Assembly (NCBI GenBank): GCA_964533005.1
Contig: CAZHLB010000001.1
Coordinates: 1-35,388 of the forward strand
From: an uncultured Saprospiraceae bacterium
Lineage (GTDB): Bacteria > Bacteroidota > Bacteroidia > Chitinophagales > Saprospiraceae
Length of the DNA: 35,388 nucleotides
Reading direction: 5' to 3'
This document shows, piece by piece, positions 127 to 32,675 of the stretch (position 1 is its first letter; each line of letters begins with the position of its first letter). The position numbers and the translations under genes are program-made. The notes under the pieces were generated by a model. That model was not told the origin of the DNA. It ran no database searches and worked only from the letters and a program-made list of their open reading frames with translations.

Positions 127-2265
127 ATGAAATCAATCTACCTCCTTCCGTTGCTGGCTTGCCTTTTTGCAAGCGCCCTTTTTTCCCAATCCAACATCAA
201 TCAAAGCCTCAGCGTGAACAGCACCGGCGCAGCCGCCAATGCCAGTGCCCAACTCGACGTCAGCGCAACCGACAAAGGAATGCTCGTGCCTCGCATGACC
301 TCGGCGCAGCGCACGGGCATTGCCTCGCCCGCCACCGGCTTGCTCGTTTTCGATACGACGACCGGTAGTTTTTGGTTTTACAACGGCACGGCATGGACGA
401 ATCTGGCTGCGCAAAATTCATTGGCAGACAGCGACAACGACACGAAAATCCAGGTGGAAGAAATCCCTGACGAAGACATTATCCGCTTCGACCTCGGCGG
501 CACGGAAAACATGGTGCTAGTCAAAAACCCAAATGGAGACGCCCGGCTGGAATTACCGAATGTTTCCGCCAACACATTTGTCGGTTTTACGGCAGGCTTT
601 TCTAATGCAGGCGGCATTCAAAACACCGCAAATGGTTACGAGGCGCTTTATTCCAATACCCTGGGTTTTTACAACACGGCTTCCGGCGTGGGTGCGCTTT
701 TTTCCAATTCAATTGGCAATAGCAACAACGCCTACGGCAGATACGCCCTCTTCTCCAATACGACCGGCTCAAACAACGTGGCTGACGGCGTGGAGGCGCT
801 TTTTACCAACAACACCGGCAATTCCAACGTGGCAATCGGCGGTTTTGCCTTGCAAAAAAACACCGACCGTTCCAACCTCGTCGCCGTCGGTGATTCGGCG
901 CTGTACAACAATGGGATGGGGGTTACCCTTCCCATTGACGCAACAGGAAACACAGCGCTTGGCTCGAAAGCCTTGTTTGCCAACACGATAGGTTTTAACA
1001 ACACGGCGAGTGGGAACGCAGCTTTGTTTTCCAACACGATAGGCTATGACAATACGGCAATCGGTCACTCTGCTTTGTTCGGCAATACGACGGGCTTTGG
1101 CAATACGGCGACAGGACGCCAGGCGCTGTTTTCCAATACGGATGGTACTTCCAACACGGCAACAGGTTCAAGAGCCTTGCAAAACAACACAACGGGGCAA
1201 TCCAACACGGCGACCGGCGCTTCTGCTTTGCAATCCAACACGACGGGTCTTTACAATACGGCGGTGGGCGTCGGTGCTTTATTTGCCAATACGTCCGGCA
1301 GGTTCAACACCGCCCAGGGAAGGGATGCGCTCTCGTTAAACACGACAGGCGAGTACAACACAGCGTCCGGCTTCGAAGCATTATATGCCAACACGACCGG
1401 CAATTTGAATACAGCAATGGGGGTTAGTGCCCTTCGTTTCAACACAACCGGCGACCAAAACACCGCTACCGGTCGTGAGGCGCTTTATTCCAACTTCAGC
1501 GGCTTCAACAACTCGGCGCATGGAGAAGCTGCGCTTCGTGCCAATACCTCCGGCAGTCATAATACCGCCGCTGGCACGGCAGCGATGAGATTAAACTCGA
1601 CAGGGGTGAGCAACACCGGCGTCGGGTCGGGTGCGCTAAACGACAATACCACTGGTCATTTCAATACCGCCCTTGGTGCGGCTTCCTTTTTCACCTTGAG
1701 CAATCTTAGCAATACGGTTTGTATCGGTTACCTGTCAGGCGGCATCAGCAACGTCAGCAACCGGATGGAAATCGGAAATAACAGTGTCAGTTTTATTGGC
1801 GGGCAGGTGAGCTGGTCAACTTACAGCGACGCCCGCATCAAGACTCAGGTGCAGGAAAACGTGCCCGGCTTGGATTTCATCACCCGGCTGCGCCCGGTGA
1901 CTTATCACCTGGATATTCATAAGCAAAACGAAATGTGCTTCCTGGGAAAGAAAGACTTGGGCGAGTGGGATGGTAAATATGATATCGAGCAAAAGCAATT
2001 CACCGGCTTCATTGCACAGGAAGTGGAGCAGGCGGCGAAGGCGGTGGGCTACGATTTCAGCGGCGTGGAAAAGGCTGCCGACGAGGTGGGAATGTACAGC
2101 GTTCGCTATTCGGATTTTGTCATGCCGCTGGTGAAGGCAGTGCAGGAACAACAAATAGAAATTGAGCAATTGAAAACGGAAAATGAGCGGTTGAAAAAAA
2201 TAGAAGCACAACTCGACAAAATCACTGCCGCACTGCATAGCGAAGGCTTCACCGTAGAAAAATGA
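127..2265 (+). CDS. P1: secreted fibre-like repeat protein with a C-terminal S74-type (tail-fibre/endosialidase) intramolecular chaperone domain
   Basis: 712-aa ORF with signal peptide MKSIYLLPLLACLFASALFSQ. It has the conserved N-domain SVNSTGAAANASAQLDVSATDKGMLVPRMTSAQRTGIASPATGLLVFDTTTGSFWFYNG and the DNDTKIQVEE..DEDIIRFDLGG segment. About nt 571-1717 encode ~17-residue NTAxGxxALxSNTxGxx repeats. The C-terminal module reads GGQVSWSTYSDARIKTQVQENVPGLDFITRLRPVTYHLD..FTGFIAQEVEQAAK..YSVRYSDFVMPLVKAVQEQQ, followed by a coiled coil ending KITAALHSEGFTVEK. Confidence 0.85.
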   Translation: MKSIYLLPLLACLFASALFSQSNINQSLSVNSTGAAANASAQLDVSATDKGMLVPRMTSAQRTGIASPATGLLVFDTTTGSFWFYNGTAWTNLAAQNSLADSDNDTKIQVEEIPDEDIIRFDLGGTENMVLVKNPNGDARLELPNVSANTFVGFTAGFSNAGGIQNTANGYEALYSNTLGFYNTASGVGALFSNSIGNSNNAYGRYALFSNTTGSNNVADGVEALFTNNTGNSNVAIGGFALQKNTDRSNLVAVGDSALYNNGMGVTLPIDATGNTALGSKALFANTIGFNNTASGNAALFSNTIGYDNTAIGHSALFGNTTGFGNTATGRQALFSNTDGTSNTATGSRALQNNTTGQSNTATGASALQSNTTGLYNTAVGVGALFANTSGRFNTAQGRDALSLNTTGEYNTASGFEALYANTTGNLNTAMGVSALRFNTTGDQNTATGREALYSNFSGFNNSAHGEAALRANTSGSHNTAAGTAAMRLNSTGVSNTGVGSGALNDNTTGHFNTALGAASFFTLSNLSNTVCIGYLSGGISNVSNRMEIGNNSVSFIGGQVSWSTYSDARIKTQVQENVPGLDFITRLRPVTYHLDIHKQNEMCFLGKKDLGEWDGKYDIEQKQFTGFIAQEVEQAAKAVGYDFSGVEKAADEVGMYSVRYSDFVMPLVKAVQEQQIEIEQLKTENERLKKIEAQLDKITAALHSEGFTVEK

Positions 2266-2324
2266 CCAATTAGCAAGCCATTCCCCGCCGTACCATCCAG
2301 AAAGCTCATCTTATCTTCGCCCCG

Positions 2325-7544: not shown

Positions 7545-7566
7545 TCAGTAAATTAAACGCCGCATA

Positions 7567-8867: not shown

Positions 8868-10769
8868 ATGAAGAAGCTCCTTCCCTTCCTCGCCTGCCTC
8901 CTGGCGGGCATCTCCCTTTTCTCCCAAACCACCTCCAACATCCAGCAGCCCCTCAGCGTGAACAGCACTGGCACCGCCGCCGACCCCAGCGCCCAGCTTG
9001 ACGTCAGCGCCAACAACAAGGGCATGCTCGTGCCCCGCATGACGACGATGCAGCGCACCGCCATCACCGCCGCCAACGCCCTGCTGGTGTTCGATTCGGA
9101 TACGAAATCTTTTTGGTTTTTCGACAGCGCAGCGGCTGCCTGGCGGGAAATCAGGGCAGGCAACATCGCCACTTTGCAGGATGCCGACGGCAACACCAAA
9201 GTGCAGGTAGAGAAAAACCCCAACGAGGACATCATCCGCTTCGACCTCGGCGGCACGGAGAACATGGTGCTGCGCAAAAACGCAGGCGGCTCGCCCCGGC
9301 TGGAGCTGACCAATGCGCAGTTCAACACCTTTGTCGGCGAGTTTGCGGGCAACGCCAACACCAGCGGCTTCTCCAACACCGCCAATGGAAGGGTTGCGCT
9401 TTATTTCAACACGACCGGCGGAGGCAACACCGCCAATGGATTGGCTGCGCTTATATTAAACACCAGCGGCAGCTTTAACAGTGCCAATGGGTTTGAGTCG
9501 CTTCGTTCCAACACAACGGGTGGCTTCAATACCGCCAGCGGAACGTATTCGCTTTATTCCAACACCACTGGCTCGAACAACACGGCACTGGGCCACTTTG
9601 CCGACGTCTTGTCAGGCAACCTCACCAACGCCACCGCCATCGGCTACAATGCCAAAGTGGGGGCGAGCAACAGCCTCGTGCTGGGTGGCACGGGCACTGA
9701 GGCGGTGAACGTCGGCATCGGCAAAACCAGCCCTGAAGTCCGGCTCCATGCCCATTCGGCAGACCCATCGGGCACGAACGGCATCGTCGGGTATTTCCAA
9801 AGGGCAGGAGCGGGCGACGTGGGCATCTCCTTTTCGCAGGAAGGCGTGATAGCTTACGGCATCATGCACCCCGTTGGCGGAGGCTTGGAATTTTACAGGG
9901 ACAGGTGGCCCGGCGGGGCAGGCACCTTGCAAATGAAAATCGCAGATTCGGGCAACGTCGGCATCGGCACTCCCACCCCTACCAGCAAATTGGACGTGGA
10001 AGGTGGCCTGTCCATCGGCGCAACATACTCCGGCACGTCAGCTGCACCGACCAATGGAGCCATCATCGAGGGCAATGTCGGCATCGGCACCCCCACCCCT
10101 TCTGCGACCCTCGACGTAAAGTCGGCAACACCTTCCATTGTAGTGGGGACTGCCGGTGGAGGTGACGGCGCCCTTTATTTTGGGAACACCGCCCATGGCG
10201 TAAAAAGAAACTATATCAATGGCAATGACGTGGCATTGTTTACGACAGCCGGGGACATTATATTAGAGTCAATAGGCACCGGCATTGCTTTTATGGTTTT
10301 GGGAAACAACGGCAACGTCGGCATCGGTCGCTTCTCTGCCACCAACAAGCTGGAAGTGGAAGGCGCCGCCTCCAAATCCTCCGCCGGCGACTGGCTCGCC
10401 AACTCCGACGCCCGCCTGAAAAAGAACATCCAACCCCTCAACTCGCAACTGATGCTGCAAAGCCTGCTCGCCCTGCGTGGCGTCACTTACGAGTGGAACG
10501 ACGACAAGACCGGCTCAAAACGTCCCGAAGGCATCCAGTACGGTTTTACGGCGCAGAATATCCGGGAGGTGTTCCCCACCCTGGTGGAGGAGGATAAATT
10601 GGGCTATTTGCAAACGGCTTATGGGACGTATGATGCGATGACGGTGGAGGCGATACGGGCGCTGAATGAGGAAAATCAGGCGTTGAAAGCGCAGGTGGAA
10701 ACCTTGACTTCTCAACTCGACAAAATCACCGCCGCCCTCGCCGGGGCTGGCATTGCGGTGGAAAAATAG
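8868..10769 (+). CDS. P2: secreted fibre-like protein, class B S74-type C-terminal module
   Basis: The ORF opens at a TTG at 8838, but the ATG at 8868 gives signal peptide MKKLLPFLACLLAGISLFSQ. The N-domain is the P8 type (..AITAANALLVFDSDTKSFWFFDSAAAAWREIRAGNIATL). Only about five 17-residue repeats are present (~9321-9591), followed by GNVGIGTPTP..KLDV-type segments. The C-terminal module reads DWLANSDARLKKNIQPLNSQ..LRGVTYEWND..GIQYGFTAQNIREVFPTLV, with tail QLDKITAALAGAGIAVEK. Confidence 0.85.
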   Translation: MKKLLPFLACLLAGISLFSQTTSNIQQPLSVNSTGTAADPSAQLDVSANNKGMLVPRMTTMQRTAITAANALLVFDSDTKSFWFFDSAAAAWREIRAGNIATLQDADGNTKVQVEKNPNEDIIRFDLGGTENMVLRKNAGGSPRLELTNAQFNTFVGEFAGNANTSGFSNTANGRVALYFNTTGGGNTANGLAALILNTSGSFNSANGFESLRSNTTGGFNTASGTYSLYSNTTGSNNTALGHFADVLSGNLTNATAIGYNAKVGASNSLVLGGTGTEAVNVGIGKTSPEVRLHAHSADPSGTNGIVGYFQRAGAGDVGISFSQEGVIAYGIMHPVGGGLEFYRDRWPGGAGTLQMKIADSGNVGIGTPTPTSKLDVEGGLSIGATYSGTSAAPTNGAIIEGNVGIGTPTPSATLDVKSATPSIVVGTAGGGDGALYFGNTAHGVKRNYINGNDVALFTTAGDIILESIGTGIAFMVLGNNGNVGIGRFSATNKLEVEGAASKSSAGDWLANSDARLKKNIQPLNSQLMLQSLLALRGVTYEWNDDKTGSKRPEGIQYGFTAQNIREVFPTLVEEDKLGYLQTAYGTYDAMTVEAIRALNEENQALKAQVETLTSQLDKITAALAGAGIAVEK

Positions 10770-13690: not shown

Positions 13691-13748
13691 GCAAGAACAC
13701 AAGGTCGGCGAAGTTCGCTACCTCGCCGGCATACCGATTTTGCCGCCT

Positions 13749-15266: not shown

Positions 15267-15359
15267 CGTATCGAATTCTTTTTCAAAGGTTTAAATGACG
15301 TCAAAGCTATGGTTTTTCACAAAGGGCGCAGCATATCGCCTGTTTCGGAGCCGAACCTC

Positions 15360-15656
15360 TCACCCGCCTTCCACTATCCGCACTTCTTCTTCCGTCAAGC
15401 CATATAATTCATACACCAGCGCATCTATCTCCCGCTCCTGGGCGCTCGTGTCGGCTTGCGGGGTGGATTGTTTTTGGGCGAGGATTTGGGTGACGAGGGA
15501 GGTGAATGGTATATGTTGTTCTTCGTTGAGCTGTTTTATTGGGAGCTTTTCAACCTTACTATTTATCCATTCATTTGTGCCCATTCCAGTGCTTGTTGCA
15601 ATCTGTTTAAAATACCATTCGCTCACTTTTGAATTAAGAATTGCAAGCAAATGCTT
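15360..15656 (-). pseudogene. C-terminal fragment of a type IIG/Eco57I-like DNA methyltransferase (TaqI_C-like specificity domain)
   Basis: The last ~98 codons of ORF 15360-16262 read KHLLAILNSKVSEWYFKQIATSTG..VEKLPIKQLNEEQ..LVTQILAQK..EREIDALVYELYGLTEEEVRIVEGG. This is the typical C-terminus of that family. The upstream part of the ORF is Arg-rich read-through in alternative frames of other remnants. Confidence 0.6.
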
Positions 15657-15761
15657 CGGGCAGAGAATGCTACGCTTAAAACCCAACTCGAAAATCAGGC
15701 AATCCGACTGGACAAAATCACCGCTGCCTTGCAAGGCGCAGGCATCGTGGTGGAGAAATAA
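15654..15761 (+). pseudogene. Orphan 3' remnant of a fibre paralog (coiled-coil tail only)
   Basis: The + frame reads LRAENATLKTQLENQAIRLDKITAALQGAGIVVEK followed by a stop at 15759-15761. This matches the conserved paralog tail, with GAGIVVEK as in P6. An in-frame TGA lies at 15630-15632, and there is no upstream fibre sequence. Confidence 0.75.
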
Positions 15762-15771
15762 GCAGCGGTTC

Positions 15772-15804
15772 AGACTTTCCAGGTTTTCAAAACCTGGAAA
15801 GTCT
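15772..15804. terminator. Perfect hairpin after the fibre remnant and the convergent Type ISP fragment
   Basis: agactttccaggtt ttcaa aacctggaaagtct forms a 14-16 bp perfect stem. It lies between the + stop at 15761 and the - stop at 15806. Confidence 0.6.
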
Positions 15805-15805
15805 A

Positions 15806-18972: not shown

Positions 18973-19358
18973 ATGACAAAATGGTTTAGGCGCAAAAATA
19001 GACTTTGTTTCGAGAATAAAAACATTTTGTGTGTTTTCTCTGCCGCTCCTCTTCTCAACGGGTAGTCCTTCCTTATCTTCTTCTGAATCTCCTCGTTGAT
19101 GTCGTCGCTTTCATCCTTGCTTTCCCAATAGCCGAAGTCGAGGCGCAGTGCATTTTTAAGAATGCCGTCGGGATAAACGGCTTTGCCGAGCGTGCCTTTC
19201 ACTGCTAATTCGGTGATAAGATAGAGGTTGCGTTTCTGCGCATATTCATTGATAAGATTGACAAAAGCGGTGCGAATGCTGGTCTCGTTGCGGCTGCCGC
19301 CATATTGGATGGTTTTGTCGAGCGCCGTGTAATATTGCTGGATTAGGAGTTTAGACAT
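18969..19358 (-). pseudogene. N-terminal fragment of a Type ISP-like restriction/modification enzyme
   Basis: The first ~100 aa read MSKLLIQQYYTALDKTIQYGGSRNETSIRTAFVNLINEYA..YPDGILKNALRLDFGYWESKDESDDINEEIQKKIRKDYP. This matches the N-terminal pattern of large Type ISP/N6-methylase enzymes as I recall it. The sequence then diverges and stops after 129 aa, overlapping the dcm start by 4 nt (ATGA). Confidence 0.55.
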
Positions 19359-19397
19359 GAGCGATTGTGTTTGAATGGTGGACGCAGGTTTGGATTT

Positions 19398-19430
19398 ACG
19401 TTTACTAAACTTTCAAAGTTTAGCAAACGT
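19398..19430. repeat. REP-like hairpin (ACGTTTACnAAACTT..AAGTTTnGnAAACGT), related to 28546-28576
   Basis: acgtttactaaactt tca aagtttagcaaacgt has one stem mismatch. Nearly the same arms occur at 28546-28576. Confidence 0.6.
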
Positions 19431-19503
19431 GGGCTGCAAGGTAAAAAGCGGGGTTAAAAAGAATATCTTGATTTCACGAGTGGGACTACTTCGCACCAAA
19501 CCC

Positions 19504-19511
19504 TACCTTTG
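19504..19511 (+). promoter_or_regulatory. Candidate -7 promoter box (TACCTTTG) for P4
   Basis: The box fits TAnnTTTG. The whole ~75-nt segment from this box to the ATG is duplicated upstream of P5, where the box reads TAACTTTG at 21841. Confidence 0.45.
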
Positions 19512-19574
19512 GCTACTCGATTCCTGGCTTTCCGGCTATTTGGCTTTTTTCCTTTTCCAATTAAATCTTCAACC

Positions 19575-21731
19575 ATGATGAAAACAGTCACTTGCTATGT
19601 CTTGTGTTTCCTCGCCGCATTTCAACTCGCCGCCCAGGTCGAGTTCAACCCGGCAGGCACTTCCACCAACGCTTCCGCCATTTTTGAACTGACCGCCACC
19701 GACAAGGGTATGCTCGTGCCTCGCATGACCACTGCTCAACGAACCGCCATTGCCTCGCCTGCCACCGGCTTGCTCGTTTTCGACACCACGACAGGCAGTT
19801 TTTGGTTCTACAACGGGGCATCCTGGATTAATTTATCCGTTCCGAAGGTGCTCGCCGATGCCGACGGCAACACCAAAATACAAGTGGAAGAAAATCCCAA
19901 TGAAGACATCATCCGCTTCGACGTCAGCGGAACAGAGGAAATGGTGCTTCGCAAAAATGGCAACGGAGAATCCCGGCTGGAATTTCCGGGGACGAATGTC
20001 TTTGTCGGGGAAGGCGCCGGGCAAGCGAATTCGAACCTCGGCAACAACAACGTTGGCGTTGGAACGCAGGCACTTTTTTCCAACAACACCGGCGACCAGA
20101 ACACTGCCGCTGGCTTCCATGCGCTTCAATCCAACAACAGCGGCAGCAACAACACCGCCACCGGTTTTCAGGCGCTTCAGGAGAACACCTCCGGTGGCAG
20201 CAACAACGCCAATGGCGTGAATGCGCTTCGGGACAACACCACCGGCGGCAGCAACACCGCCACTGGCGTGAATGCGCTGCTTTCCAACACCACCGGCAGC
20301 GACAACACTGCCACTGGCGTGGCTGCGCTTTCCTCCAACACCAACGGCACCCAAAACACGGCTCATGGAGCGCAGGCGCTTTTTTCCAATACCACCGGCG
20401 ACTACAATACCGCCACCGGAAAGAGTGCGCTTTATTCCAACACCAGCGGCAACTACAACACTGCCAATGGCACAAATGCGCTTTTTTCCAACACCACAGG
20501 CAATTACAACACCTCAACCGGGTATGAATCGCTCGCTTTCAGCACCGGCTCTTTCAATTTGGCGAGCGGCTATCAAGCCATGTACGAAAACACTACCGGC
20601 TTTTCCAACACGGCGAGCGGCTACACTTCGCTCTATTCCAACACCACCGGCTTTCAAAACACGGCGGACGGGCACCAGGCTTTGCATGGCAATACCACCG
20701 GCGCTTTTAACATGGCGGCAGGCTACCGGGCTGCCTACGTCAACACCACCGGCTCTGCCAACGTGGCAATTGGGATTCGGGCTTTGTACCTGAATACCGA
20801 CCGCTCTTTCCTGGTAGCGGTGGGCGATTCGGCGCTTTACAATAATGGCGTGGGCGCTTCCCTGAGCACTCATTCGACCGAAAATACGGCGCTTGGCTCC
20901 AAGGCTTTGTTTGCCAACACCACTGGCGACTCCAACACCGGAGCAGGTTTTCAAGCCATGTTTGCCAACACGACCGGCGGAAACAACACGGCAGTCGGCT
21001 TTGAAGCTTTTGACCTGAACCTGACCGGCAACAATAGCACGACAATGGGTTACAGAGCTGGCGACGAGGGAAGCGACAATACCAATTGCACGTCCATTGG
21101 CGCTGATTCGGACGTGGGCACTGCGGGCACGAGCTACACCAATGCCACCGCCCTCGGCTACAATGCCAACACCGCCGCCGACAATTACGTCCGCATCGGA
21201 AACACCAGCGTTTCCAGCATCGGCGGGCAGGTCGGGTGGAGCACTTATTCCGACGGGCGGTTCAAGCGAAATGTGCAGGAAAACGTGGCGGGTTTGGATT
21301 TCATCATCCGCCTGCGTCCGGTGACTTATCAGTGGGACATTCATGCGCTGAACGATTTCATCCCAACCGCCAACGACGACTCGACGGAGTGGCGAGGCAA
21401 GTATGACATTGAAACAATGCGCTTCACTGGCTTCGTTGCGCAAGAAGTGGAACAGGCGGCGACGGAGGCGGGCTTTGATTTTAGCGGGGTGGACAAGCCG
21501 AAAAATGAGCACACGCCGTATGCTTTGCGCTACGCCGAGTTCGTCGTGCCACTGGTGAAGGCGGTGCAGGAGCAGCAAGCGGAAATTGGAAATTGGAAAT
21601 TGGAAATTCAGGAGCAGCAAGCCAGGATTGAAAAGGTAGAAAGACTTGAATCTGAAAATGCGGCATTGAAATCCCACCTCGAAAAAATCACCGCCGCCCT
21701 GCAAGGCGCAGGCATTGCTGTCGAAAAGTAA
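19575..21731 (+). CDS. P4: secreted fibre-like repeat protein with an S74-type C-terminal module
   Basis: The ORF opens at a TTG at 19509, but ATGs at 19575 and 19578 give signal peptide M(M)KTVTCYVLCFLAAFQLAAQ, as in P5. The N-domain is FELTATDKGMLVPRMTTAQRTAIASPATGLLVFDTTTGSFWFYNG. The 17-residue repeats span about 19995-21135. The C-terminal module reads GGQVGWSTYSDGRFKRNVQENVAGLDFIIRLRPVTYQWD..FTGFVAQEVEQAA..YALRYAEFVVPLVKAVQEQQ, with tail ..VERLESENAALKSHLEKITAALQGAGIAVEK. Confidence 0.85.
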   Translation: MMKTVTCYVLCFLAAFQLAAQVEFNPAGTSTNASAIFELTATDKGMLVPRMTTAQRTAIASPATGLLVFDTTTGSFWFYNGASWINLSVPKVLADADGNTKIQVEENPNEDIIRFDVSGTEEMVLRKNGNGESRLEFPGTNVFVGEGAGQANSNLGNNNVGVGTQALFSNNTGDQNTAAGFHALQSNNSGSNNTATGFQALQENTSGGSNNANGVNALRDNTTGGSNTATGVNALLSNTTGSDNTATGVAALSSNTNGTQNTAHGAQALFSNTTGDYNTATGKSALYSNTSGNYNTANGTNALFSNTTGNYNTSTGYESLAFSTGSFNLASGYQAMYENTTGFSNTASGYTSLYSNTTGFQNTADGHQALHGNTTGAFNMAAGYRAAYVNTTGSANVAIGIRALYLNTDRSFLVAVGDSALYNNGVGASLSTHSTENTALGSKALFANTTGDSNTGAGFQAMFANTTGGNNTAVGFEAFDLNLTGNNSTTMGYRAGDEGSDNTNCTSIGADSDVGTAGTSYTNATALGYNANTAADNYVRIGNTSVSSIGGQVGWSTYSDGRFKRNVQENVAGLDFIIRLRPVTYQWDIHALNDFIPTANDDSTEWRGKYDIETMRFTGFVAQEVEQAATEAGFDFSGVDKPKNEHTPYALRYAEFVVPLVKAVQEQQAEIGNWKLEIQEQQARIEKVERLESENAALKSHLEKITAALQGAGIAVEK

Positions 21732-21741
21732 TAGACTGAAC

Positions 21742-21774
21742 AGCGATACGATTGCTTCAAGCAATCGTATCGCT
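21742..21774 (+). terminator. Perfect hairpin terminator after P4
   Basis: agcgatacgattgc ttcaa gcaatcgtatcgct starts 11 nt after the stop. The stem base AGCGATACGAT is shared with the hairpin after P6, with one compensatory base-pair change. No T-run follows. Confidence 0.6.
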
Positions 21775-21840
21775 CCTTCCCGAGACCTCGGAGCGGAAAT
21801 TAGAGGCATCGAGCCAGTTTCAATTTGCCGAGCCAAACCC

Positions 21841-21848
21841 TAACTTTG
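21841..21848 (+). promoter_or_regulatory. Candidate -7 promoter box (TAACTTTG) for P5
   Basis: The box fits TAnnTTTG and lies within the duplicated P4/P5 upstream segment (ggctactcga.tcctggctttcc..atttggcttttttccttttccaattaaatctt). Confidence 0.45.
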
Positions 21849-21914
21849 GCTACTCGAATCCTGGCTTTCCGAGCATTTGGCTTTTTTCCTTTTCCAATTA
21901 AATCTTGAACCAAG

Positions 21915-23858
21915 ATGAAAACAGTCACTTGCTACGCCTTGTGTTTTCTCGCCGCATTTCAACTCGCCGCACAGGTCGAGTTCAACCCGGCGGGCACTTC
22001 CACCAACGCTTCCGCTATTTTTGAACTGACAGCTAACGACAAGGGAATGCTCGTGCCTCGCATGACTTCAGCGCAGCGAATAGGCATTGCCTCGCCCGCC
22101 ACCGGCTTGCTCGTTTTCGACACCACGACAGGCAGTTTTTGGTTTTACAATGGCACGGTGTGGGTGGATTTGGCTTCGCCAAAATTGCTTGCCGACACCG
22201 ACAACGACACCAAAATTCAAGTGGAAAAAAATCCTGATGAGGATAAAGTCAGGGTGGATTTGGCAGGTTCGGAGCGGCTCGTTTTGCAACGAAATGCCGC
22301 AGGCAACACCCAAATTTTGCTGCCCAACAACAGCCAGAATACCTTCATCGGCAACGCCGCAGGCAACGCCAACACGACCGGCTCGACGAACACCGCCGTT
22401 GGCGACAATGCTTTGATTGCCAACACCGATGGGCTTTCCAACACCGCCATCGGCGTGAATGCACTGGAAAACAACGTCTCCGGCATCTCGAACACGGCGA
22501 GCGGCGTGAATGCCTTGAATGCCAATTCCAACGGCTCGAACAATTCGGCACATGGGCAAGAAGCGCTGTTTTCCAACACCGACGGCAGTTCCAACGTGGC
22601 AATCGGCGCATCCGCTTTGCACGAGAATACCGACCGCTCCTTCCTGGTCGCCGTCGGCGACTCGGCTATGTACAACAATGGGACGGGCGTCGTGGAAACT
22701 TATCATGCCGCCGGAAACGTGGCGGTGGGCAGCAAGGCGCTTTTTGGCAACACCATTGGCTACGCCAACACCGGCGTCGGCGACAATGCGCTGTCTGCCA
22801 ACACAGACGGCAACAACAACACAACTTGCGGGCATTTTTCGCTGGCGGGGAACACCACCGGCATCTACAACACTGCCCTTGGCAGCCGTGCCTTGCGCAA
22901 CAACACGACCGGCTCCAACAACACGGCGAGCGGCTTTTTTGCTTTGTATTCTAACACCACTGGCTTCTCCAACACTGCCGTCGGCAATAATGCACTGTAT
23001 CTCAATACCAACCGCTCCAACCTCGTGGCAGTGGGCGACTCGGCTTTGTACAACAATGGGACGGGGGCGACGATTTATTATGAAGCCGTGCGCAACACGG
23101 CGCTCGGCAGCAAAGCGCTTTTTTCCAACACCGTTGGCTTTGAAAATACTGCCACTGGTTTTAACGCACTGAATAGTAATGTTGCCGGATTTGGTAATAC
23201 AGGCGTTGGTTATAGCACAGGTTCCATCTCCGCAGGCAACGTGTATTCTACCTTCATAGGATATGATGCGGACGTGCCGGCAGGTTCTCCCAATGTTTTT
23301 TTTAGCACTGCTCTCGGATACAATTCCCGCGTAAGTGGAGATTTCGAAGTGCGCATAGGATACTCCGGCACACTATCCATCGGCGGTTATCAAAATTGGA
23401 CAAACTACTCCGATGGGCGCTTCAAAAACCAGGTTCGGGAAGATGTGCCTGGCTTGGATTTTTTGCTCCGGCTGCGCCCGGTGACTTACCAATTGGATGT
23501 GGAAGGATTGAGCGCCCATTTGAAAGAAAGCAAGCCGGAGGGCAACATTTCCCGCTTGCCCCGGGGAGACCAAATCCGTCGCACGGGTTTCATCGCCCAG
23601 GAAGTGGAGGCGGCAGCGAAGCAAGCCGGGTTTGATTTCAGCGGGGTGGATGCGCCCAAAAATGAGAACGACTTGTACGGCTTGCGCTACGCCGAGTTCG
23701 TTGTGCCGTTGGTGAAGGCGGTGCAGGAAATGGATGCGAACGAGCAAAACCAAAACGAGAAGATAGCGGCTTTGCAAGCCGAGAACGCAGCCCTGAAAGC
23801 GCAGCTTGAAAAAATCGCCGCCGCCCTGCAAGGCGTTGGCATTACCGTTGAAAAATAG
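21915..23858 (+). CDS. P5: secreted fibre-like repeat protein with an S74-type C-terminal module
   Basis: 647-aa ORF. The signal peptide and N-domain are nearly identical to P4. The 17-residue repeats span about 22338-23208. The C-terminal module reads GGYQNWTNYSDGRFKNQVREDVPGLDFLLRLRPVTYQLD..TGFIAQEVEAAAKQAGFDFSGVDAPKNENDLYGLRYAEFVVPLVKAVQE, with tail LEKIAAALQGVGITVEK. Confidence 0.85.
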   Translation: MKTVTCYALCFLAAFQLAAQVEFNPAGTSTNASAIFELTANDKGMLVPRMTSAQRIGIASPATGLLVFDTTTGSFWFYNGTVWVDLASPKLLADTDNDTKIQVEKNPDEDKVRVDLAGSERLVLQRNAAGNTQILLPNNSQNTFIGNAAGNANTTGSTNTAVGDNALIANTDGLSNTAIGVNALENNVSGISNTASGVNALNANSNGSNNSAHGQEALFSNTDGSSNVAIGASALHENTDRSFLVAVGDSAMYNNGTGVVETYHAAGNVAVGSKALFGNTIGYANTGVGDNALSANTDGNNNTTCGHFSLAGNTTGIYNTALGSRALRNNTTGSNNTASGFFALYSNTTGFSNTAVGNNALYLNTNRSNLVAVGDSALYNNGTGATIYYEAVRNTALGSKALFSNTVGFENTATGFNALNSNVAGFGNTGVGYSTGSISAGNVYSTFIGYDADVPAGSPNVFFSTALGYNSRVSGDFEVRIGYSGTLSIGGYQNWTNYSDGRFKNQVREDVPGLDFLLRLRPVTYQLDVEGLSAHLKESKPEGNISRLPRGDQIRRTGFIAQEVEAAAKQAGFDFSGVDAPKNENDLYGLRYAEFVVPLVKAVQEMDANEQNQNEKIAALQAENAALKAQLEKIAAALQGVGITVEK

Positions 23859-23861
23859 GCA

Positions 23862-23898
23862 TGAAGGTCGGCGGCGTTGCGAACGCCGCCGACCTTCA
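23862..23898 (+). terminator. Perfect GC-rich hairpin between P5 and P6
   Basis: tgaaggtcggcggcgtt gcg aacgccgccgaccttca forms a 17-bp stem starting 4 nt after the P5 stop. It is homologous to the imperfect hairpin at 10779-10809. No T-run follows, so it could act as an attenuator or RNA-stability element rather than a full terminator. Confidence 0.55.
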
Positions 23899-23953: not shown

Positions 23954-26900
23954 ATGAAAGCATTCCTTACCTCCGTTTGTTGCTTCCTCGCAACCTTCCT
24001 TTTCTCCCAATCCAACATCCAGCAATCCGTCAGCGTCAACGCCGACGGCTCGGCTGCCCACGCCAGCGCCCAACTCGACGTGAGCGCCACGAACAAAGGC
24101 GTCCTCGTGCCTCGCATGACCACCGCCCAGCGAACTGCCATTGCTTCGCCAGCGACGGGCTTGCTCGTTTTCGACACGGACACGGGCGGGTTTTGGTTTT
24201 ACAACGGTGCGACGTGGACAGCCATCGCCACAGGCGGCGGCGGCGGTTCTTTCATTGCCGATGCCGACAACGACACTAAAATTCAGGTGGAAGAAAGCCC
24301 GAATGAGGACATCATCCGAATGGATTTGGCAGGCTCGGAGCGGCTCGTACTCAAGCGAAATGCCGCCGGGAACACGCAGCTTTCCCTACCCAACAACAGC
24401 GACAATTTTTTTGCCGGGGAAAATGCAGGCGACGGCAACACGACCGGGTCTTTGAACATTGCCATCGGCAAGGCTGCCCTTTTTGCAAATACCGACCGCC
24501 CCAACCTCGTGGCAGTGGGCGACTCGGCGCTGTACAACAACGGGACAGGGGCGACCCTTTCTTTTCACGCCACCGGTAATACTGCGCTCGGTAGCAAGGC
24601 GCTTTTTTCCACCACGACCGGGTACTGGAACACGGCGAATGGCTTCCAGACTTTGTATTCCAATACGAGCGGCAGCGAAAATACGGCAAGCGGCTACCGG
24701 GCTTTGTATTCCAACACCTACGGTCTCGGGAATATTGCCACAGGAACAGGTGCGCTATATTCCAACACCACCGGCATTTACAATACTGCCAATGGATGGG
24801 GGGCGCTTTATTGGAACACCACCGGCATTGCCAATACGGCAACCGGCGCAGCTTCGCTTTTTAACAACACCACTGGCAATTACAATTCTGCCAATGGAGT
24901 ATATGCCCTTTTTAGCAACACCACCGGCTATGAAAATACTGCCGACGGAAACGAGGCGCTATATTCCAACTCCACCGGCTATTACAATACTGCCAACGGA
25001 AGGCGGGCGCTTTATTGGAACACGACCGGTGTTGGTAATACGGCAACGGGCGCCGCTTCGCTTTTTTTCAACACCACCGGCTTTAATAATACTGCCAATG
25101 GATTATATGCCCTTTATTCCAACACCACCGGCTCCAGCAATACTGCCATTGGATTAAATGCGCTTTATTCTAACACCACCGGCTTTTACAATACGGCAAC
25201 TGGGCTTTCTGCGCTTTATTCCAATACTACTGGCAATAGCAATACGGCAAATGGATTACAGGCGCTAAATTTCAACACCACTGGCTCTTTCAATACTGCC
25301 ACAGGCACATTTTCACTTTATGCCAACACCAGCGGCGCCAGCAATACTGCCAATGGATACGCTGCGCTTACTTACAACACCAGCGGCTCCGGCAATACTG
25401 CCAATGGAGCATATGCCCTTAATACTAACACCACCGGCGCTGATAATACGGCTAATGGATTTTATGCCCTTAATGCCAATACCACCGGCTATGAAAATAC
25501 TGCCGATGGAAACGAGGCGCTTAAATCCAACACCACCGGCTATTATAATACCGCCAATGGAAGGAGGGCGCTTCATTGGAACACCACCGGCGTTGGTAAT
25601 TCGGCAACGGGCGCTGCGTCGCTTTTTTTCAATACGACCGGCAATTACAATACTGCCGATGGGTTATATGCGCTGTTTTCCAACACCACAGGTAGTTCAA
25701 ACGTCGCCATAGGCAAGGATGCCTTGTACCTGAATACCGACCGCTCCAACCTCGTCGCCGTCGGCGATTCGGCGCTGTACAACAACGGGACAGGCGCATC
25801 GGCATCTTTTCACAGCCTGGCTAACGTGGCGGTAGGCAGCAAGTCGCTGTTCGGCAACACGACCGGGTACGCAAACACTGCCCTCGGCAGCGAAGCTCTG
25901 CGCAACAATTCGACCGGGAGTTACAACACGGCAAGCGGCAACGCTGCTTTGCTTTCCAACACCACCGGCTATTCCAACACGGCAACCGGCAACTGGGCTT
26001 TGCTTTCCAACACTACCGGCATCGAAAACACGGCAAGCGGCAACGGGGCATTGTATTCGAATGATACCGGCAACTCCAACACGGCGAGCGGCTTCAACGC
26101 ATTGTATTCCAACACGATGGGCTTGGACAATACGGCATTCGGCTCCAGTGCACTTTACACCAATTCGACGGGCTGGAGCAATGTGGCTATTGGCACTGAA
26201 GCATTGTATTTAAATCAGACGGGTTTACAAAACACGGCTCAAGGCACTGCCGCTTTATATGCCAACACCACCGGCAGCGAAAACACGGCTTGCGGCTACC
26301 TGGCTTTGGAGGACAATACGACCGGCATCGAAAACACCGCCCTGGGCAAATCTGCTTTGAATGTGAACACGACCGGCTCTTACAACTTGGCGCTTGGCAA
26401 GAACGCCTACTTTTCTGCTAATAATTTGGACAACACCGCCTGCCTCGGCTACAACTCCGGCGGACAAAGCAACGTCAGCGACCGCATCGAAATCGGCAAC
26501 ACCAGTGTCTCGTGGATTGGCGGTCAGGTGGGCTGGTTAACTTACAGCGATGCCCGCATCAAGACGCAGGTGCAGGAAAATGTGCCCGGCTTGGACTTCA
26601 TCACCCGCCTGCGCCCTGTCACCTATCATTTGGACATTCACAAGCAAAACGAGCTTTGTTTTCGTGGCAAAAAGGAAATAGGCGAGTGGGAGAGCAAGTA
26701 CGACATCGAGAAAAGGCAGTTCACCGGCTTCATCGCCCAGGAGGTGGAGCAGGCAGCGAAGGCGGTCGGCTACGATTTCAGCGGCGTGGAAAAGGCTGCC
26801 GACGAGGTGGGCATGTACAGCGTTCGCTACTCTGACTTTGTGATGCCGCTGGTGAAGGCAGTGCAGGAGCAACAAGTGGAGATTGAATCTTTGAGAAGTG

Positions 26901-26977
26901 AAAACATTGCCCTTAAATTTCAACTCGAGAAAATCACTGCTGCCTTACAAGGCGCAGGGATTGTCGTCGAAAAGTAA
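23954..26977 (+). CDS. P6: largest secreted fibre-like repeat protein with an S74-type C-terminal module
   Basis: The ORF opens at 23861 across the hairpin, but the ATG at 23954 gives signal peptide MKAFLTSVCCFLATFLFSQ, as in P3. The 17-residue repeats span about 24404-26468 and include an internal segmental duplication. The C-terminal module is nearly identical to P1 (YSDARIKTQVQENVPGLDFITRLRPVTYHLDIHKQNE..GYDFSGVEKAADEVGMYSVRYSDFVMPLVKAVQEQQ), with tail LEKITAALQGAGIVVEK. Confidence 0.85.
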   Translation: MKAFLTSVCCFLATFLFSQSNIQQSVSVNADGSAAHASAQLDVSATNKGVLVPRMTTAQRTAIASPATGLLVFDTDTGGFWFYNGATWTAIATGGGGGSFIADADNDTKIQVEESPNEDIIRMDLAGSERLVLKRNAAGNTQLSLPNNSDNFFAGENAGDGNTTGSLNIAIGKAALFANTDRPNLVAVGDSALYNNGTGATLSFHATGNTALGSKALFSTTTGYWNTANGFQTLYSNTSGSENTASGYRALYSNTYGLGNIATGTGALYSNTTGIYNTANGWGALYWNTTGIANTATGAASLFNNTTGNYNSANGVYALFSNTTGYENTADGNEALYSNSTGYYNTANGRRALYWNTTGVGNTATGAASLFFNTTGFNNTANGLYALYSNTTGSSNTAIGLNALYSNTTGFYNTATGLSALYSNTTGNSNTANGLQALNFNTTGSFNTATGTFSLYANTSGASNTANGYAALTYNTSGSGNTANGAYALNTNTTGADNTANGFYALNANTTGYENTADGNEALKSNTTGYYNTANGRRALHWNTTGVGNSATGAASLFFNTTGNYNTADGLYALFSNTTGSSNVAIGKDALYLNTDRSNLVAVGDSALYNNGTGASASFHSLANVAVGSKSLFGNTTGYANTALGSEALRNNSTGSYNTASGNAALLSNTTGYSNTATGNWALLSNTTGIENTASGNGALYSNDTGNSNTASGFNALYSNTMGLDNTAFGSSALYTNSTGWSNVAIGTEALYLNQTGLQNTAQGTAALYANTTGSENTACGYLALEDNTTGIENTALGKSALNVNTTGSYNLALGKNAYFSANNLDNTACLGYNSGGQSNVSDRIEIGNTSVSWIGGQVGWLTYSDARIKTQVQENVPGLDFITRLRPVTYHLDIHKQNELCFRGKKEIGEWESKYDIEKRQFTGFIAQEVEQAAKAVGYDFSGVEKAADEVGMYSVRYSDFVMPLVKAVQEQQVEIESLRSENIALKFQLEKITAALQGAGIVVEK

Positions 26978-26990
26978 TTCAACAAGTACC

Positions 26991-27025
26991 AAGCGATACG
27001 ATGGCTCGAAGCCATCGTATCGCTT
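26991..27025 (+). terminator. Rho-independent-type terminator after P6
   Basis: aagcgatacgatggc tcgaa gccatcgtatcgctt is followed by tttat. It is related to the P4 hairpin. Confidence 0.7.
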
Positions 27026-27096
27026 TTTATCCATAATTTTAGCAATCAAAATGTCGAAGGACATCCTTCGCTTCCTCCTAATCAAATCACGCCAAT

Positions 27097-28020
27097 ATGA
27101 AAAAAAAGTGCACACTTCCGTTCCTCGCGTTCATCGCATCAACCAGCCTTGTCGTCCTTCACGGACAAACCACGCATGAAATCATCACGATTGGAAACAC
27201 CTTTAGCCCCAGCACCCTGACCATCCAGGCAGGCGATTCGGTGCGCTGGGTGAACAGCGGCAGGTGGGCGCTGTACCCGAACACGTCGCTCTCCAACAAC
27301 GCCGCCTTTGGCTTCTCGGCAGGCGACCAGTACCTCTCCGACAACTCGACCTACTTGGGCGTCGAGGCATATCCTTCCGCCGCCGGTTTTACCAATTGCA
27401 TGGGCTTGGGCAGGAGCGCACGCCCCACCGGTTCCAACCGGGTGCATATCGGCAACGCCAGCATTACTGCCATTTGCGGGCAGGTGGGCTTCACCACTTG
27501 TTCCGATGGGCGTTTCAAAAAGAACGTGAGCGAAAAAGTAGGCGGCTTGGACTTCATTCTGCGCCTGCGCCCCGTCACCTACAACATGGACGTTCAAGGC
27601 ATCGCCGCAGCCCTCAAGGAAGACTGGGGCAGGAACGAACAAGGCAACATCGTCCAAAAATCGCCGGACGAGGCGACTCGCCGCAGCCGGGAAGAAAAAT
27701 CGCAAATCCGCTACACAGGCTTCATCGCCCAGGAAGTGGAAGCGGCGGCGAAGCAGGTGGGTTTTGACTTTAGCGGCGTGGATGCGCCGCAAAATGAAAC
27801 CGGCTTGTATGGTCTTCGCTATTCCGAGTTTGTCGTGCCGTTGGTGAAAGGGATGCAAGAGCAGCAAGTGGAGATTGGAAATTTGAAATTGGAAATTGAG
27901 GCGCAGCAAGTCAGGATTGAAAAAGTGGAAAGACTTGAATCAGAAAATGCAGCCTTAAAATCCCAACTCGACAAAATCACCGCCGCCCTCACAGGCGCAG
28001 GCATTGCGGTAGAAAAATAA
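27097..28020 (+). CDS. P7: short chimeric protein, a cupredoxin-like N-terminal fragment fused to an S74-type module
   Basis: 307-aa ORF with signal peptide MKKKCTLPFLAFIASTSLVVLHGQ. The segment TTHEIITIGNTFSPSTLTIQAGDSVRWVNSG resembles the first strands of plastocyanin/cupredoxin-like domains but stops before the His ligands, at about nt 27261. It lacks the family N-domain and has almost no repeats. The rest reads IGNASITAICGQVGFTTCSDGRFKKNVSEKVGGLDFILRLRPVTYNMD..GFDFSGVDAPQNETGLYGLRYSEFVVPLVKGMQEQQ, and the tail is nearly identical to P4. Confidence 0.7.
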   Translation: MKKKCTLPFLAFIASTSLVVLHGQTTHEIITIGNTFSPSTLTIQAGDSVRWVNSGRWALYPNTSLSNNAAFGFSAGDQYLSDNSTYLGVEAYPSAAGFTNCMGLGRSARPTGSNRVHIGNASITAICGQVGFTTCSDGRFKKNVSEKVGGLDFILRLRPVTYNMDVQGIAAALKEDWGRNEQGNIVQKSPDEATRRSREEKSQIRYTGFIAQEVEAAAKQVGFDFSGVDAPQNETGLYGLRYSEFVVPLVKGMQEQQVEIGNLKLEIEAQQVRIEKVERLESENAALKSQLDKITAALTGAGIAVEK

Positions 28021-28088
28021 CCTCGCATCGAGTCGGTGACCAAGCCCTCTGGAAAGCCCCGCCCGACCAGCCCGAACTGGCGGCTAAA

Positions 28089-28511
28089 GTGCTGGAACCA
28101 AGCCTGTTCGGCGGAACCTACGCACTGACGACCGACGAGCAAATCTGGGTCGCCGCCGGAACCTATCTCCCCACCAAAGACATCATCGGCAATGCCGCTC
28201 CCGCCGACCCTCGCGACAAAACCTTTTTCCTCGACGAAGACCTGCTGTTCTACGGCGGCTTCAACGGCACGGAGACCCTGCTTTCCCAGCGAAATTTCAT
28301 CACCAACGTCACCATTTTGAGCGGCGACCTCGGCTCACCGGGCGATTTGGACAACGCCTTCCACGTCCTGTACTTTGACCACCGCTCGGCGGCGATGCTG
28401 CTCGACGGCTTCACCGTCCGGGACGGCAACGCCGAACCGCTGAACGGCGGCGGGAACCGGAGGTGGGCGTTTTGCCAAAAAATCCGGTGGAGCGATTGGA
28501 AGGACAAGTAG
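28089..28511 (+). pseudogene. Internal fragment of a beta-helix surface protein/adhesin
   Basis: IWVAAGTYLPTKD..RDKTFFLDEDLLFYGGFNGTETLLSQRNFITNVTILSGDLG..DNAFHVLYF..LLDGFTVRDGNA..GGG is the recurring N-terminal pattern of large right-handed beta-helix proteins of Bacteroidota. There is no signal peptide or credible start, since the frame is open upstream into the P7 3' end. It ends after 140 codons. Confidence 0.55.
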
Positions 28512-28545
28512 CCGGGTAGCCGGCGGCGGTTTTTGATTAGGCTCA

Positions 28546-28576
28546 CGTTTACGAAACTTTTGAAGTTTCGTAAACG
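28546..28576. repeat. REP-like perfect hairpin (CGTTTACGAAACTT ttg AAGTTTCGTAAACG), related to 19398-19430
   Basis: A 14-bp perfect stem with a 3-nt loop. The arms differ from the 19398 copy at one or two positions. Confidence 0.65.
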
Positions 28577-28796
28577 GAAATCGCCTCAGTCCCGTCAACC
28601 CTTCTGACGCACTACCGTTTAAACTTCAAAAACTTCACATCAACAATCTCTTGATTGGCAATCCTCTCGAACCTCATCGAAACCCATTCAAAAGCATCAT
28701 TCTTTTTTAACCATCACCAAATGACGGCGGGAACAGGCGCACCCCTTTCGAGCTTTCGCCATTCTCTGCCGCTGTTCGGAGCAATCATTTTTTATC

Positions 28797-30029
28797 ATGA
28801 AAAACATCCAGGTTTTACTCCCCGCGCTGGCGCTTGCCTTCCTGCTCGCTTCCTGCGCCAAGGAACAACTCAGCACCCCCGAAGCTGCGCTTGCCGCAGA
28901 AACGGGCGACCTGCAAATTGACCCCGCCGAAGGCTTGCTCGACGAGGAGGCGCTGTACAAAGTCCTCGCCGGAGAGGAGGAACTGTCGTCCAGGACAAGC
29001 CCCCAATCCGCCGTTTACACCCTCGGCAATGAGGTGGCGGGCAACGAGGTCATCGCTTTTTATCGCAACGACGACGGCTCGCTTTACGAGGCGGGCAGAT
29101 ACGGCACGGGCGGCACAGGTTCGGGCGGCGGACTTGGCAACCAGGCTGCACTGGCGATGAGCAGCGGCGGCAAATTTTTGTACGCCGTCAATCCCGGCAG
29201 CAATGAAATCAGCCATTTTCTCATTCGGAACGACGGCAGCTTGGAATTGAAAAACAGAATCGCATCGGGTGGCGTGCTGCCCGTGAGCATCGCCGTTCAC
29301 AACGGGCTGGTTTACGTGCTCAACGCAGGCGGCACGGGCAACATCACCGGGTTCGCCTTCAACCAGCAGGGGCAAATTTTCCAGTTGTCCAATTCCACCC
29401 GCGCCTTGAGCAGCCCAAGCGCAGGCGCTGCGCAAATCGCCTTCAGCCCGGACGGCAAGGTGCTGGTCGTCACCGAAAAAGCGACGAACACGATTTCGAG
29501 CTACCCCGTGCTGTCCAGCGGGCGCACTGGCGCAATCCGCACGTTTCCCTCGGCAAACGCCACGCCTTTTGGTTTCGCTTTTGGCAGAAACGGCAACTTC
29601 CACGTCTCCGAAGCCGCAGGCGGCGCTGCCGGGGCAAGCACGATTTCAACCTACCACGTGAACATCATCGGGCAGGTTTCGCTGGTGGACGGTCCTTTTG
29701 CGCTCAACCAGTCCGCCGCCTGCTGGGTCGCCCTTGCCAAAAACAACTCGTTGTTGTTCTCGACCAACACCGGCTCGAATACCATTTCGACGCTCGACGT
29801 CTCCTTCTCCGGCGTCTTGAGCGCACCCGCCAGCGGCGGCACGGCAACCGCCATGTCGCAGCCGCTCGATGCGGCGGTGGACAAGGATTCCGACCACCTG
29901 TACGTGCTGGCGACGGGCAACAACGCTATTATCAGCTACACTTTCGACAGCAATGGGAAATTGACTCAAATTGACGTGGACGACGAAAACCTGCCCGACC
30001 GGATGAGCGGGCTGGTGGTGAGGGGATAA
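28797..30029 (+). CDS. Lactonase-type 7-bladed beta-propeller family lipoprotein
   Basis: 410-aa ORF with lipoprotein signal MKNIQVLLPALALAFLLASC. Repeated blade-like segments are present (GGKFLYAVNPGSNEISHF, NGLVYVLNAGGTGNITGF, DGKVLVVTEKATNTISSY, NSLLFSTNTGSNTISTL, SDHLYVLATGNNAIISY). Confidence 0.7.
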   Translation: MKNIQVLLPALALAFLLASCAKEQLSTPEAALAAETGDLQIDPAEGLLDEEALYKVLAGEEELSSRTSPQSAVYTLGNEVAGNEVIAFYRNDDGSLYEAGRYGTGGTGSGGGLGNQAALAMSSGGKFLYAVNPGSNEISHFLIRNDGSLELKNRIASGGVLPVSIAVHNGLVYVLNAGGTGNITGFAFNQQGQIFQLSNSTRALSSPSAGAAQIAFSPDGKVLVVTEKATNTISSYPVLSSGRTGAIRTFPSANATPFGFAFGRNGNFHVSEAAGGAAGASTISTYHVNIIGQVSLVDGPFALNQSAACWVALAKNNSLLFSTNTGSNTISTLDVSFSGVLSAPASGGTATAMSQPLDAAVDKDSDHLYVLATGNNAIISYTFDSNGKLTQIDVDDENLPDRMSGLVVRG

Positions 30030-30072
30030 TCATTGGTACTGGAATGTTGGCAAAAGCGAGTATCAAGAATTC

Positions 30073-30221: not shown

Positions 30222-30229
30222 TAGATTTG
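30222..30229 (+). promoter_or_regulatory. Candidate -7 promoter box (TAGATTTG) for P8
   Basis: The box fits TAnnTTTG and ends 25 nt before the ATG at 30255. It overlaps an inverted repeat, tgaaatttaga..tctaaatttca, that spans the leader. The leader resembles that of P1. Confidence 0.4.
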
Positions 30230-30254
30230 ACCTCCATTCACCTCTAAATTTCAA

Positions 30255-32675: not shown

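Follow-up and report, generated by a model that had tools for sequence, protein, structure and literature searches.

We found that eight tailspike-like paralogs on a 35,388-nucleotide stretch of DNA from an uncultured Saprospiraceae bacterium (assembly GCA_964533005.1, contig CAZHLB010000001.1; the whole stretch is called the window here) have a mosaic structure far beyond chance, and that these copies are true recombinants. The window belongs to a Bacteroidota chromosome, and the closest family locus that we found lies in a Saprospiraceae metagenome-assembled genome. Its paralogs, P1 to P8, are all encoded on the forward strand, and all eight exceed the Pfam threshold for Peptidase_S74. We consider it likely that the locus as a whole holds old recombinants of interchangeable end modules, and not a dedicated generator of surface diversity. 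The original prediction for this DNA had proposed repeated gene conversion or recombination among the copies as a possible way to diversify surface fibres. Its recombination half stands, borne out by incongruent segment trees, by two recombination tests (PHI and Max-Chi²) and by a mosaic that extends to synonymous sites and gene leaders; ongoing activity, an exchange confined to the copies themselves and a role in surface diversification do not.

The copies follow a common plan: a signal-peptide-like start, present in all of them, an N-domain (sub-segments N1, N2 and N3) with the family motifs …LDVSATDKGMLVPRMT…FWFYNG…DTKIQVE…EDIIRFDL…, a repeat shaft of the NTAxG type, a Peptidase_S74 region that begins at SD[AG]RxK, and a helical tail with the end motif L(D/E)KITAALxGAGIxVEK. 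P7 is the exception to this plan, being without an N-domain, and in P2 and P8 the S74 region belongs to another, divergent class (class B). In per-segment identity matrices all eight paralogs and every similarity listed in the original prediction were present, and the partners of a given gene change from one segment to the next.

P4 (19575..21731, 718 aa, in an open reading frame (ORF) that opens at 19509) and P5 (21915..23858, 647 aa) have a common leader, signal peptide and N1, with 92-93% nucleotide identity (86% over -78 to +332), as opposed to 59% in N3; the last ~78 nt of the P5 leader (21837..21914, forward strand) have a homologous counterpart in the P4 leader (19497-19574). The N module of P5 is a three-way mosaic, P4-like as far as KGMLVPRMT (22041-22067), then P1-like in N2 and P6/P3-like in N3, and its S74b, part of the S74 core, resembles that of P7 (78% nucleotide identity). 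The S74 core of P4 has its nearest relative outside the window, and from a junction at PLVKAVQEQQ (21552-21572) onwards P4 continues with the long coiled-coil tail of P7 (87% nucleotide identity; 82% across the last 315 nt). P7 itself is short (27097..28020, 307 aa) and keeps only the last turns of the shaft and the C-terminal unit, with its P5-like S74b and P4-like tail.

P1 (127..2265, 712 aa; NTAxG shaft, KGMLVPRMT at 274-300, SDARIK at 1825-1842, PLVKAVQE block at 2128-2148) and P6 (23954..26977, 1007 aa, in an ORF that opens at 23861, inside the 3' end of P5) have S74 cores that are 88-93% identical in nucleotides, with an S74b of 100% amino-acid identity, and tails that are only 63% identical. 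The tail of P1 matches P3 instead (78%), its signal peptide resembles P2 and P8, its N1 P3 and P8, and its N2 P5. P6, in turn, has the signal peptide of P3 (95% nucleotide identity, against 57-60% in S74), and its distal tail turns P4-like from column 259 of the C-module alignment. P3 (10868..13690, 940 aa, with a distinct NSFFG-type shaft) combines this P6-like signal peptide with an N1 like that of P1 and P8, an N3 like that of P5 and P6, an S74 region whose nearest relative lies outside the window, and the P1-like tail. P2 (8868..10769, 633 aa; its ORF also opens at TTG 8838, and its class-B S74 has SDARLK at 10404-10421) and P8 (30261..32675, 804 aa) are alike in N2, N3 and S74 class (81-89% nucleotide identity) and in part of the shaft, but differ in signal peptide, N1 and tail. 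The signal peptide and N1 of P8 resemble P3 and P1, and its tail is a composite, which starts P7-like (EIGNLK) and switches to the P1/P3 type at an ERLKKVE segment (Max-Chi² p=2e-4).

The similarities reach into non-coding DNA. The spacer between P2 and P3 (10770..10867, forward strand), which contains a terminator-like hairpin, is homologous over its whole length to that between P5 and P6 (23859-23953), with 77% identity, and the P4 and P5 leaders are ~90% identical, compared with 46-49% for unrelated leaders. The leaders of P3 and P6 both begin inside the conserved 3' end of the preceding paralog. In a window-by-window painting the mosaic occupies only the two ends of the genes (5' ~400 nt, 3' ~550 nt), and between them lie shafts that for the most part are gene-specific or show no more than weak similarity. 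Recent exchange of the internal 'LVAVGDSALYNNG' shaft modules was considered and rejected, as these are 62-73% identical in nucleotides within genes and between genes alike.

Segment-wise trees (bootstrapped neighbour-joining) are incongruent, and their strongly supported splits are mutually incompatible: P4 groups with P5 in the signal peptide and N1 (100%), P3, P5 and P6 group together in N3 (100%) with P5 and P6 as a pair (97%), P1 groups with P6 in S74b (100%), and in the tail P1 joins P3 (83%) and P4 joins P7 (89%). The pairwise homoplasy index (PHI) test, run in our own implementation with p-values from permutation, gave p=5e-4 both for the N module (7 genes) and for the N and C modules together (5 genes), a result that holds with third codon positions alone. 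Triplet maximum chi-squared (Max-Chi²) tests, carried out for each claimed exchange, yielded p=2e-4 for most triplets, which is the floor with 5000 permutations, and the strings of discriminating sites show a long clean run of one parent and then of the other. In the tracts of greatest similarity, synonymous divergence (dS) amounts to 0-0.4; the remainder of these gene pairs ranges from 0.8 to saturation. In the array of another genome (L046) PHI was marginal (p=0.046), the paralogs there being too divergent with 47-62% nucleotide identity, and the N-domain motif was absent from the other arrays.

The breakpoints had been expected at blocks conserved in every copy, and about half of them are indeed found there. 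The junctions at KGxLVPRMT (N-module columns 50-72) and PLVKAVQEQQ (C-module columns 226-236) lie at the 84th-98th percentile of local conservation, a placement to be read with the caveat that junctions inside conserved stretches are inherently harder to localise, and each of the two blocks offers ~15-20 nt of near-identity in every copy. The other junctions, at the end of the signal peptide, at N-module columns 115-131 and at C-module columns 207 and 259, lie at average conservation.

That these patterns arose with no recombination at all, by unequal constraint, convergence, alignment error or chimeric metagenome assembly, is scarcely credible. The segments are short (20-130 codons), conserved blocks inflate their similarity and the DNA stems from a metagenome, all of which could mislead. 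Unequal constraint and convergence are excluded, however, because the mosaic is present at synonymous sites, both in dS and in the PHI test of third codon positions, and in the non-coding leaders, and this evidence effectively refutes the explanation; the conflicting splits, moreover, have 97-100% bootstrap support. Nor is the pattern an assembly artefact, since no misjoin can produce two diverged copies of one tract. Three independent ENA contigs from replicate samples (L001, L085 and L086) are 99.9-100% identical to window positions 21659-23879 and 24948-28801, and since they reproduce P5 and the P6-P7 junction exactly, the structures of P5 and of P6/P7 are not assembly artefacts. The short contigs that are identical to parts of the window come from the Hainich groundwater well H51. 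The three independent contigs, with their unchanged structures, also speak against an active, programmed diversification system, in which frequent gene conversion among expressed genes and partial cassettes would operate in the manner of pilE/pilS or vlsE, and which we regard as very improbable here. A clustered multi-copy family, variable segments flanked by conserved blocks, a perfect 31-nt inverted repeat upstream of P2, and two donors that are conceivable in principle, the truncated P7, which has a start codon of its own, and an orphan tail at 15648-15761, would suit such a system. Near-identical tracts are missing, however: the longest exact run common to any two copies measures 14-66 nt, and shared tracts mostly have a dS of 0.26-1.0, the 20-codon signal peptide of P3 and P6 alone being near zero (dS=0). 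We therefore see no active switching system, and the word 'repeated', in the sense of ongoing exchange, is not borne out. The ratio of nonsynonymous to synonymous divergence (dN/dS) is 0.06-0.39 throughout, which indicates purifying selection on all segments, and what has been exchanged are conserved modules, not the variable shaft. Neither dedicated machinery (recombinase, invertase or reverse transcriptase) nor phage genes were found in the window, and two samples of a related three-paralog locus (L083 and L084) are 99.98% identical, with no reshuffling.

It could also be that the mosaics were pre-assembled, that is, shuffled elsewhere, in other genomes or phages, and then acquired or inherited in mosaic form without mutual recombination at this locus, although we think this unlikely. 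Many segments are indeed nearest to proteins of other genomes: the S74 core of P3 is 85% identical to an external protein and 48% to its best paralog in the window, and the corresponding values are 86% and 65% for the S74 region of P4 and 72% and 59% for that of P7. Among 33 family members of the same tail type from many genomes, the modules are uncoupled, with nearly uncorrelated distance matrices (Mantel r 0.00-0.32), and phage tail-spike profiles match the shaft and the C-module. Because of these external nearest relatives and low Mantel correlations, we conclude that the lineages of the modules predate these genomes and were re-assorted across the family. Other tracts contradict an exclusively foreign origin. 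The adjacent P4 and P5 are 94-96% identical in the amino acids of signal peptide and N1, against 55% for the best external protein, the P3 and P6 signal peptides with dS=0 are preceded by the homologous spacers, and the P1/P6 S74 core, P2/P8 and the P4/P7 tail are likewise closer to each other within the window. Tracts that are closest in the window and reach into non-coding DNA indicate duplication or conversion within the lineage; some exchanges or partial duplications, spacers included, took place within the present lineage. The view that the exchange occurred 'among the copies' is thus correct for part of the mosaic only.

Our preferred explanation, old recombination between interchangeable end modules, would work as follows. 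In a chromosomal array of Sec-exported proteins resembling phage tailspikes and tail fibres (eight genes and a tail-only relic), homologous exchange has probably re-associated, more than once, a 5' module, composed of leader, signal peptide and N sub-segments, with a 3' module, composed of S74 core and tail. Likely routes are gene conversion, unequal crossing-over of tandem copies and duplication of gene parts along with the spacers between genes. Short near-identical DNA blocks, such as those that encode KGxLVPRMT and PLVKAVQEQQ, are located at some of the junctions. The events are old, with module lineages common to related genomes and all segments under purifying selection, and the present pattern is better understood as the accumulated product of occasional recombination in modules for export, anchoring and folding.

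Several points weigh against this explanation. Within the C module alone the PHI signal is weaker (p=0.0075) and third codon positions are not significant. The shafts are hard to align, and older or shorter exchanges could have been missed there, while the identities quoted for nearest external proteins are lower bounds from a set of ~220 proteins chosen by similarity. A search for the orthologous locus, starting from the single-copy lactonase gene (28797-30029), found no relative in genome and metagenome contigs, and for want of such a locus from a sister strain or species the exchanges are not datable against speciation and shuffling at the population level may still occur. Self-cleavage, trimerisation and surface exposure of these proteins are predicted from homology.

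The nature of the proteins bears on what has been exchanged. The family is very large, with >7,900 database hits in Saprospiraceae, Chitinophagales, Flavobacteriales and Bacteroidales, and its members go under varying labels, 'tail fiber domain-containing protein' or 'trimeric autotransporter adhesin'. Precomputed annotation places PF26696 (PTL_trimer), the family of the N-domain, in P5 and most homologues, though not in P7; we found no literature on this domain or on the cellular family, and NCBIfam offered no family name for any of the copies. In an exact-protein look-up P1 and P3 were without record, and for P5 and P7 the only matches lay on short contigs of the Hainich well.

The S74 region matches PF13884 (Peptidase_S74) in all eight copies with 33.9-61.1 bits (gathering cutoff 22), and a Ser-Lys dyad, S-x4-K, is kept in each of them as SDARIK, SDARLK, SDARFK or SDGRFK at the start of the Pfam match. 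In intramolecular chaperone auto-processing (ICA) domains, a Ser-Lys dyad spaced five residues apart cleaves the chain just before the Ser (S911/K916 in endoNF, S587/K592 in MyRF), and the C-terminal helices form a triple coiled coil that drives trimerisation and is needed for cleavage (PMC8326128). In an AlphaFold2 model of P5 (monomer, pLDDT 75), the N-domain is rich in beta structure, the long shaft consists of beta repeats, the S74 region is alpha/beta, and a helix of 50 residues (592-640) forms the terminus. With this model, Foldseek matched the ICA domain of MyRF (7dc3, probability 1.00, TM-score 0.6 on the target), the GA-1 phage chaperone (3gud, probability 0.97) and endosialidase 3gw6, with E-values of 0.04-1; ICA domains were the only confident fold matches in the PDB, in which a sequence-profile search gave no match. 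By motif and by model, the S74 core and the coiled-coil tail are the two halves of one predicted ICA folding and trimerisation unit, which by analogy with the known cases is probably released from the mature fibre by self-cleavage.

Viral databases place the remainder of the protein close to phage fibres. BFVD contained 44 fold matches at E<=1e-3, and the viral neighbours are phage and giant-virus fibres with ICA domains. The PHROG tail-spike profile phrog_4636 covers the shaft and C-module of P5 (8.7e-72), and further tail-fibre PHROGs match as well; all of these profiles leave the N-domain uncovered. This domain (~110 aa, conserved, pLDDT 87 in the model) gave local matches only, to N-terminal or neck regions of phage tailspikes (probability 0.84-0.99, E ~0.4). 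The C-terminal Por_Secre_tail sorting domain was found by Pfam in none of the eight copies, nor was a YadA-type membrane anchor; YadA_head appeared in P8 only, with 18.2 bits against a cutoff of 25. In seven relatives (P0011, P0016, P0024, P0030, P0033, P0040 and P0043), a Por_Secre_tail domain belonging to T9SS, the type IX secretion system, does follow the ICA domain. Self-cleavage in these relatives would part the fibre from its secretion signal, which brings into question the order of secretion and cleavage.

The repeat shaft is the likely exposed part of such a fibre. Because the ICA unit is probably cut off, the case for tail and core shuffling as a diversifier of the exposed surface is weakened, and the proposal that recombination serves to diversify surface fibres appears doubtful: signal peptide, N-domain and ICA unit are what has been swapped, and the shafts are mostly private. 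A different use of the shuffling is conceivable, in which ICA core and coiled-coil tail, given that the terminal helix drives trimerisation, would act as an assembly 'barcode' that prevents mixed trimers of co-expressed paralogs or allows defined hetero-trimers, for example by pairing the short P7 with P4, which has the same long tail. We judge this idea improbable. If it were true, recombination that re-assorts barcodes with shafts would set which fibres co-assemble, P7 and the orphan tail would be leftover or donor cassettes, and the phage ICA module would have an undescribed cellular use.

Among known phenomena, the modular mosaicism of tail fibres and tailspikes in phages comes closest; it is also classical for the fibres of T-even and P2 phages. 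Like the phage proteins (PMC10684548), which are beta-structured and trimeric and consist of exchangeable N-terminal attachment, shaft and C-terminal modules with junctions at conserved linkers, the window proteins show junctions at conserved blocks, and they share the phrog_4636 match and the ICA-fibre fold neighbours in BFVD. Unlike phage fibre genes, those of the window are chromosomal, tandemly amplified and predicted to be Sec-exported, their N-domain is without a phage-profile match, no phage genes lie near the array, the events are old, and mainly conserved ends were exchanged instead of receptor-binding parts. The C-terminal unit corresponds to the ICA domain, or C-terminal intramolecular chaperone domain (CIMCD), of endosialidase, the GA-1 neck appendage and MyRF (PMC8326128, PMC3742443) in its PF13884 match, its Ser-x4-Lys dyad and its alpha/beta core with a long helix. 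It differs in that its terminal helix is longer and has the clade-specific end motif given above, that two divergent S74 classes occur in one array, and that cleavage is predicted only.

Patchy homogenisation between tandem neighbours, with flanking non-coding DNA involved, likens the locus to the concerted evolution and partial gene conversion of bacterial paralogs (e.g. PMC6053082) and of surface multigene families. In the window, by contrast, homogenisation is incomplete and old, the lineages are distinct and span genomes, and the net result is reassortment. Trimeric autotransporter adhesins (YadA/BadA/Vomp) likewise occur as paralog arrays with domain shuffling, the NTAxG shaft recalls YadA-head repeats, and some relatives carry this annotation; the C-terminus of the window proteins, however, is an ICA domain, and there is no YadA anchor barrel. 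With the antigenic variation cassettes of Neisseria (pilE/pilS) and Borrelia (vlsE), the locus has in common a clustered family, copies that are only partial (P7, the tail relic) and conserved flanking blocks, but near-identical donor tracts, a signature of frequent conversion and dedicated machinery are absent from the window, and the variable shaft is not the part that was exchanged.

The two partial copies deserve some description. In P7, residues 1-97 (27097-27390) take the place of the family N-domain and form an orphan N-terminus, for which no homologue was detected in 5.8 billion proteins and no match in Pfam; P7 may be a fusion or truncation product. An interpretation of this N-terminus as a cupredoxin fragment was dropped, as both the Pfam and the full homologue search came back empty. 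The relic of a ninth copy (15648..15761, forward strand) is an orphan coiled-coil tail, QMLRAENATLKTQLENQAIRLDKITAALQGAGIVVEK, which ends at its own stop codon, has another stop codon just upstream and is without an S74 core. The closest relative of its tail type is an external protein (P0018, 77%). It adjoins a restriction-modification island and abuts a TaqI_C fragment on the opposite strand.

This island, a low-GC region (41-50%) at 13700-19400 with Dcm, Vsr and DUF4928 genes, splits the paralog array. Besides the TaqI_C fragment, it encodes, on the reverse strand, an AAA_35 ATPase (13749-15266), Vsr (16455-16850), DUF4928 in two ORFs (17160-17813 and 16843-17154; likely a frameshift) and a C5 DNA methylase (17779-18972), and it is probably a decaying restriction-modification or defence island. 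The other neighbours of the array are a hybrid sensor kinase with Y_Y_Y and AraC domains, a DUF3455 gene, the lactonase and an unrelated protein with a T9SS C-terminal domain (33379-35382).

Inverted repeats were also considered as dedicated machinery, an idea that was discarded, as the long-range ones in the window are at chance level. The perfect 31-nt repeat upstream of P2 (8662-8692/8787-8817), which extends to ~42 nt if one bulge is allowed, occurs nowhere else in the window, encloses 94 nt with a terminator-like hairpin in the centre, and ends ~50 nt before the P2 start codon; we saw no clear Bacteroidota -7 motif inside it, and it may be either a large terminator or an element that can invert. 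The hybrid sensor kinase gene contains, where it encodes the linker from HATPase to receiver, an imperfect 46-nt palindrome (5746-5791/5823-5868, 89% complementary), which has the look of a palindrome inserted in frame. A CATAG/CTATG-rich 35-nt inverted repeat (7565-7599/7619-7653, 94% complementary, 19-nt loop) is located just downstream of the DUF3455 gene. The P2-P3 and P5-P6 spacers have a common GC-rich terminator-like hairpin, GGTCGGCG[A/G]CG-TTGCGAA-CGCC[G/C]CCGACC, whose stem pairs perfectly between P5 and P6 but contains two mismatches between P2 and P3. In the related three-paralog locus, the sequences L083 and L084 differ by 3 mismatches in 14.1 kb, but their first 801 nt are fully divergent, with the junction inside a gene that does not belong to the family; this difference reflects either structural variation or a chimeric assembly.

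Large arrays of tailspike-like genes, with up to eight or nine copies per locus, thus occur in this large and uncharacterised family. Our analysis reveals no new mechanism. It corrects the intuitive reading of such arrays, as the parts that are swapped are mostly those for export or anchoring and a probably disposable folding module, and not the exposed shaft. For annotation and phylogeny this implies that whole-gene trees are meaningless and that modules should be treated separately. It also raises the question of how a cell that produces many similar trimeric fibres would assemble each of them correctly. The LEGO-like exchange known from phage receptor-binding proteins is at work in a cellular family of predicted Sec-exported, tailspike-like proteins of Bacteroidota as well.

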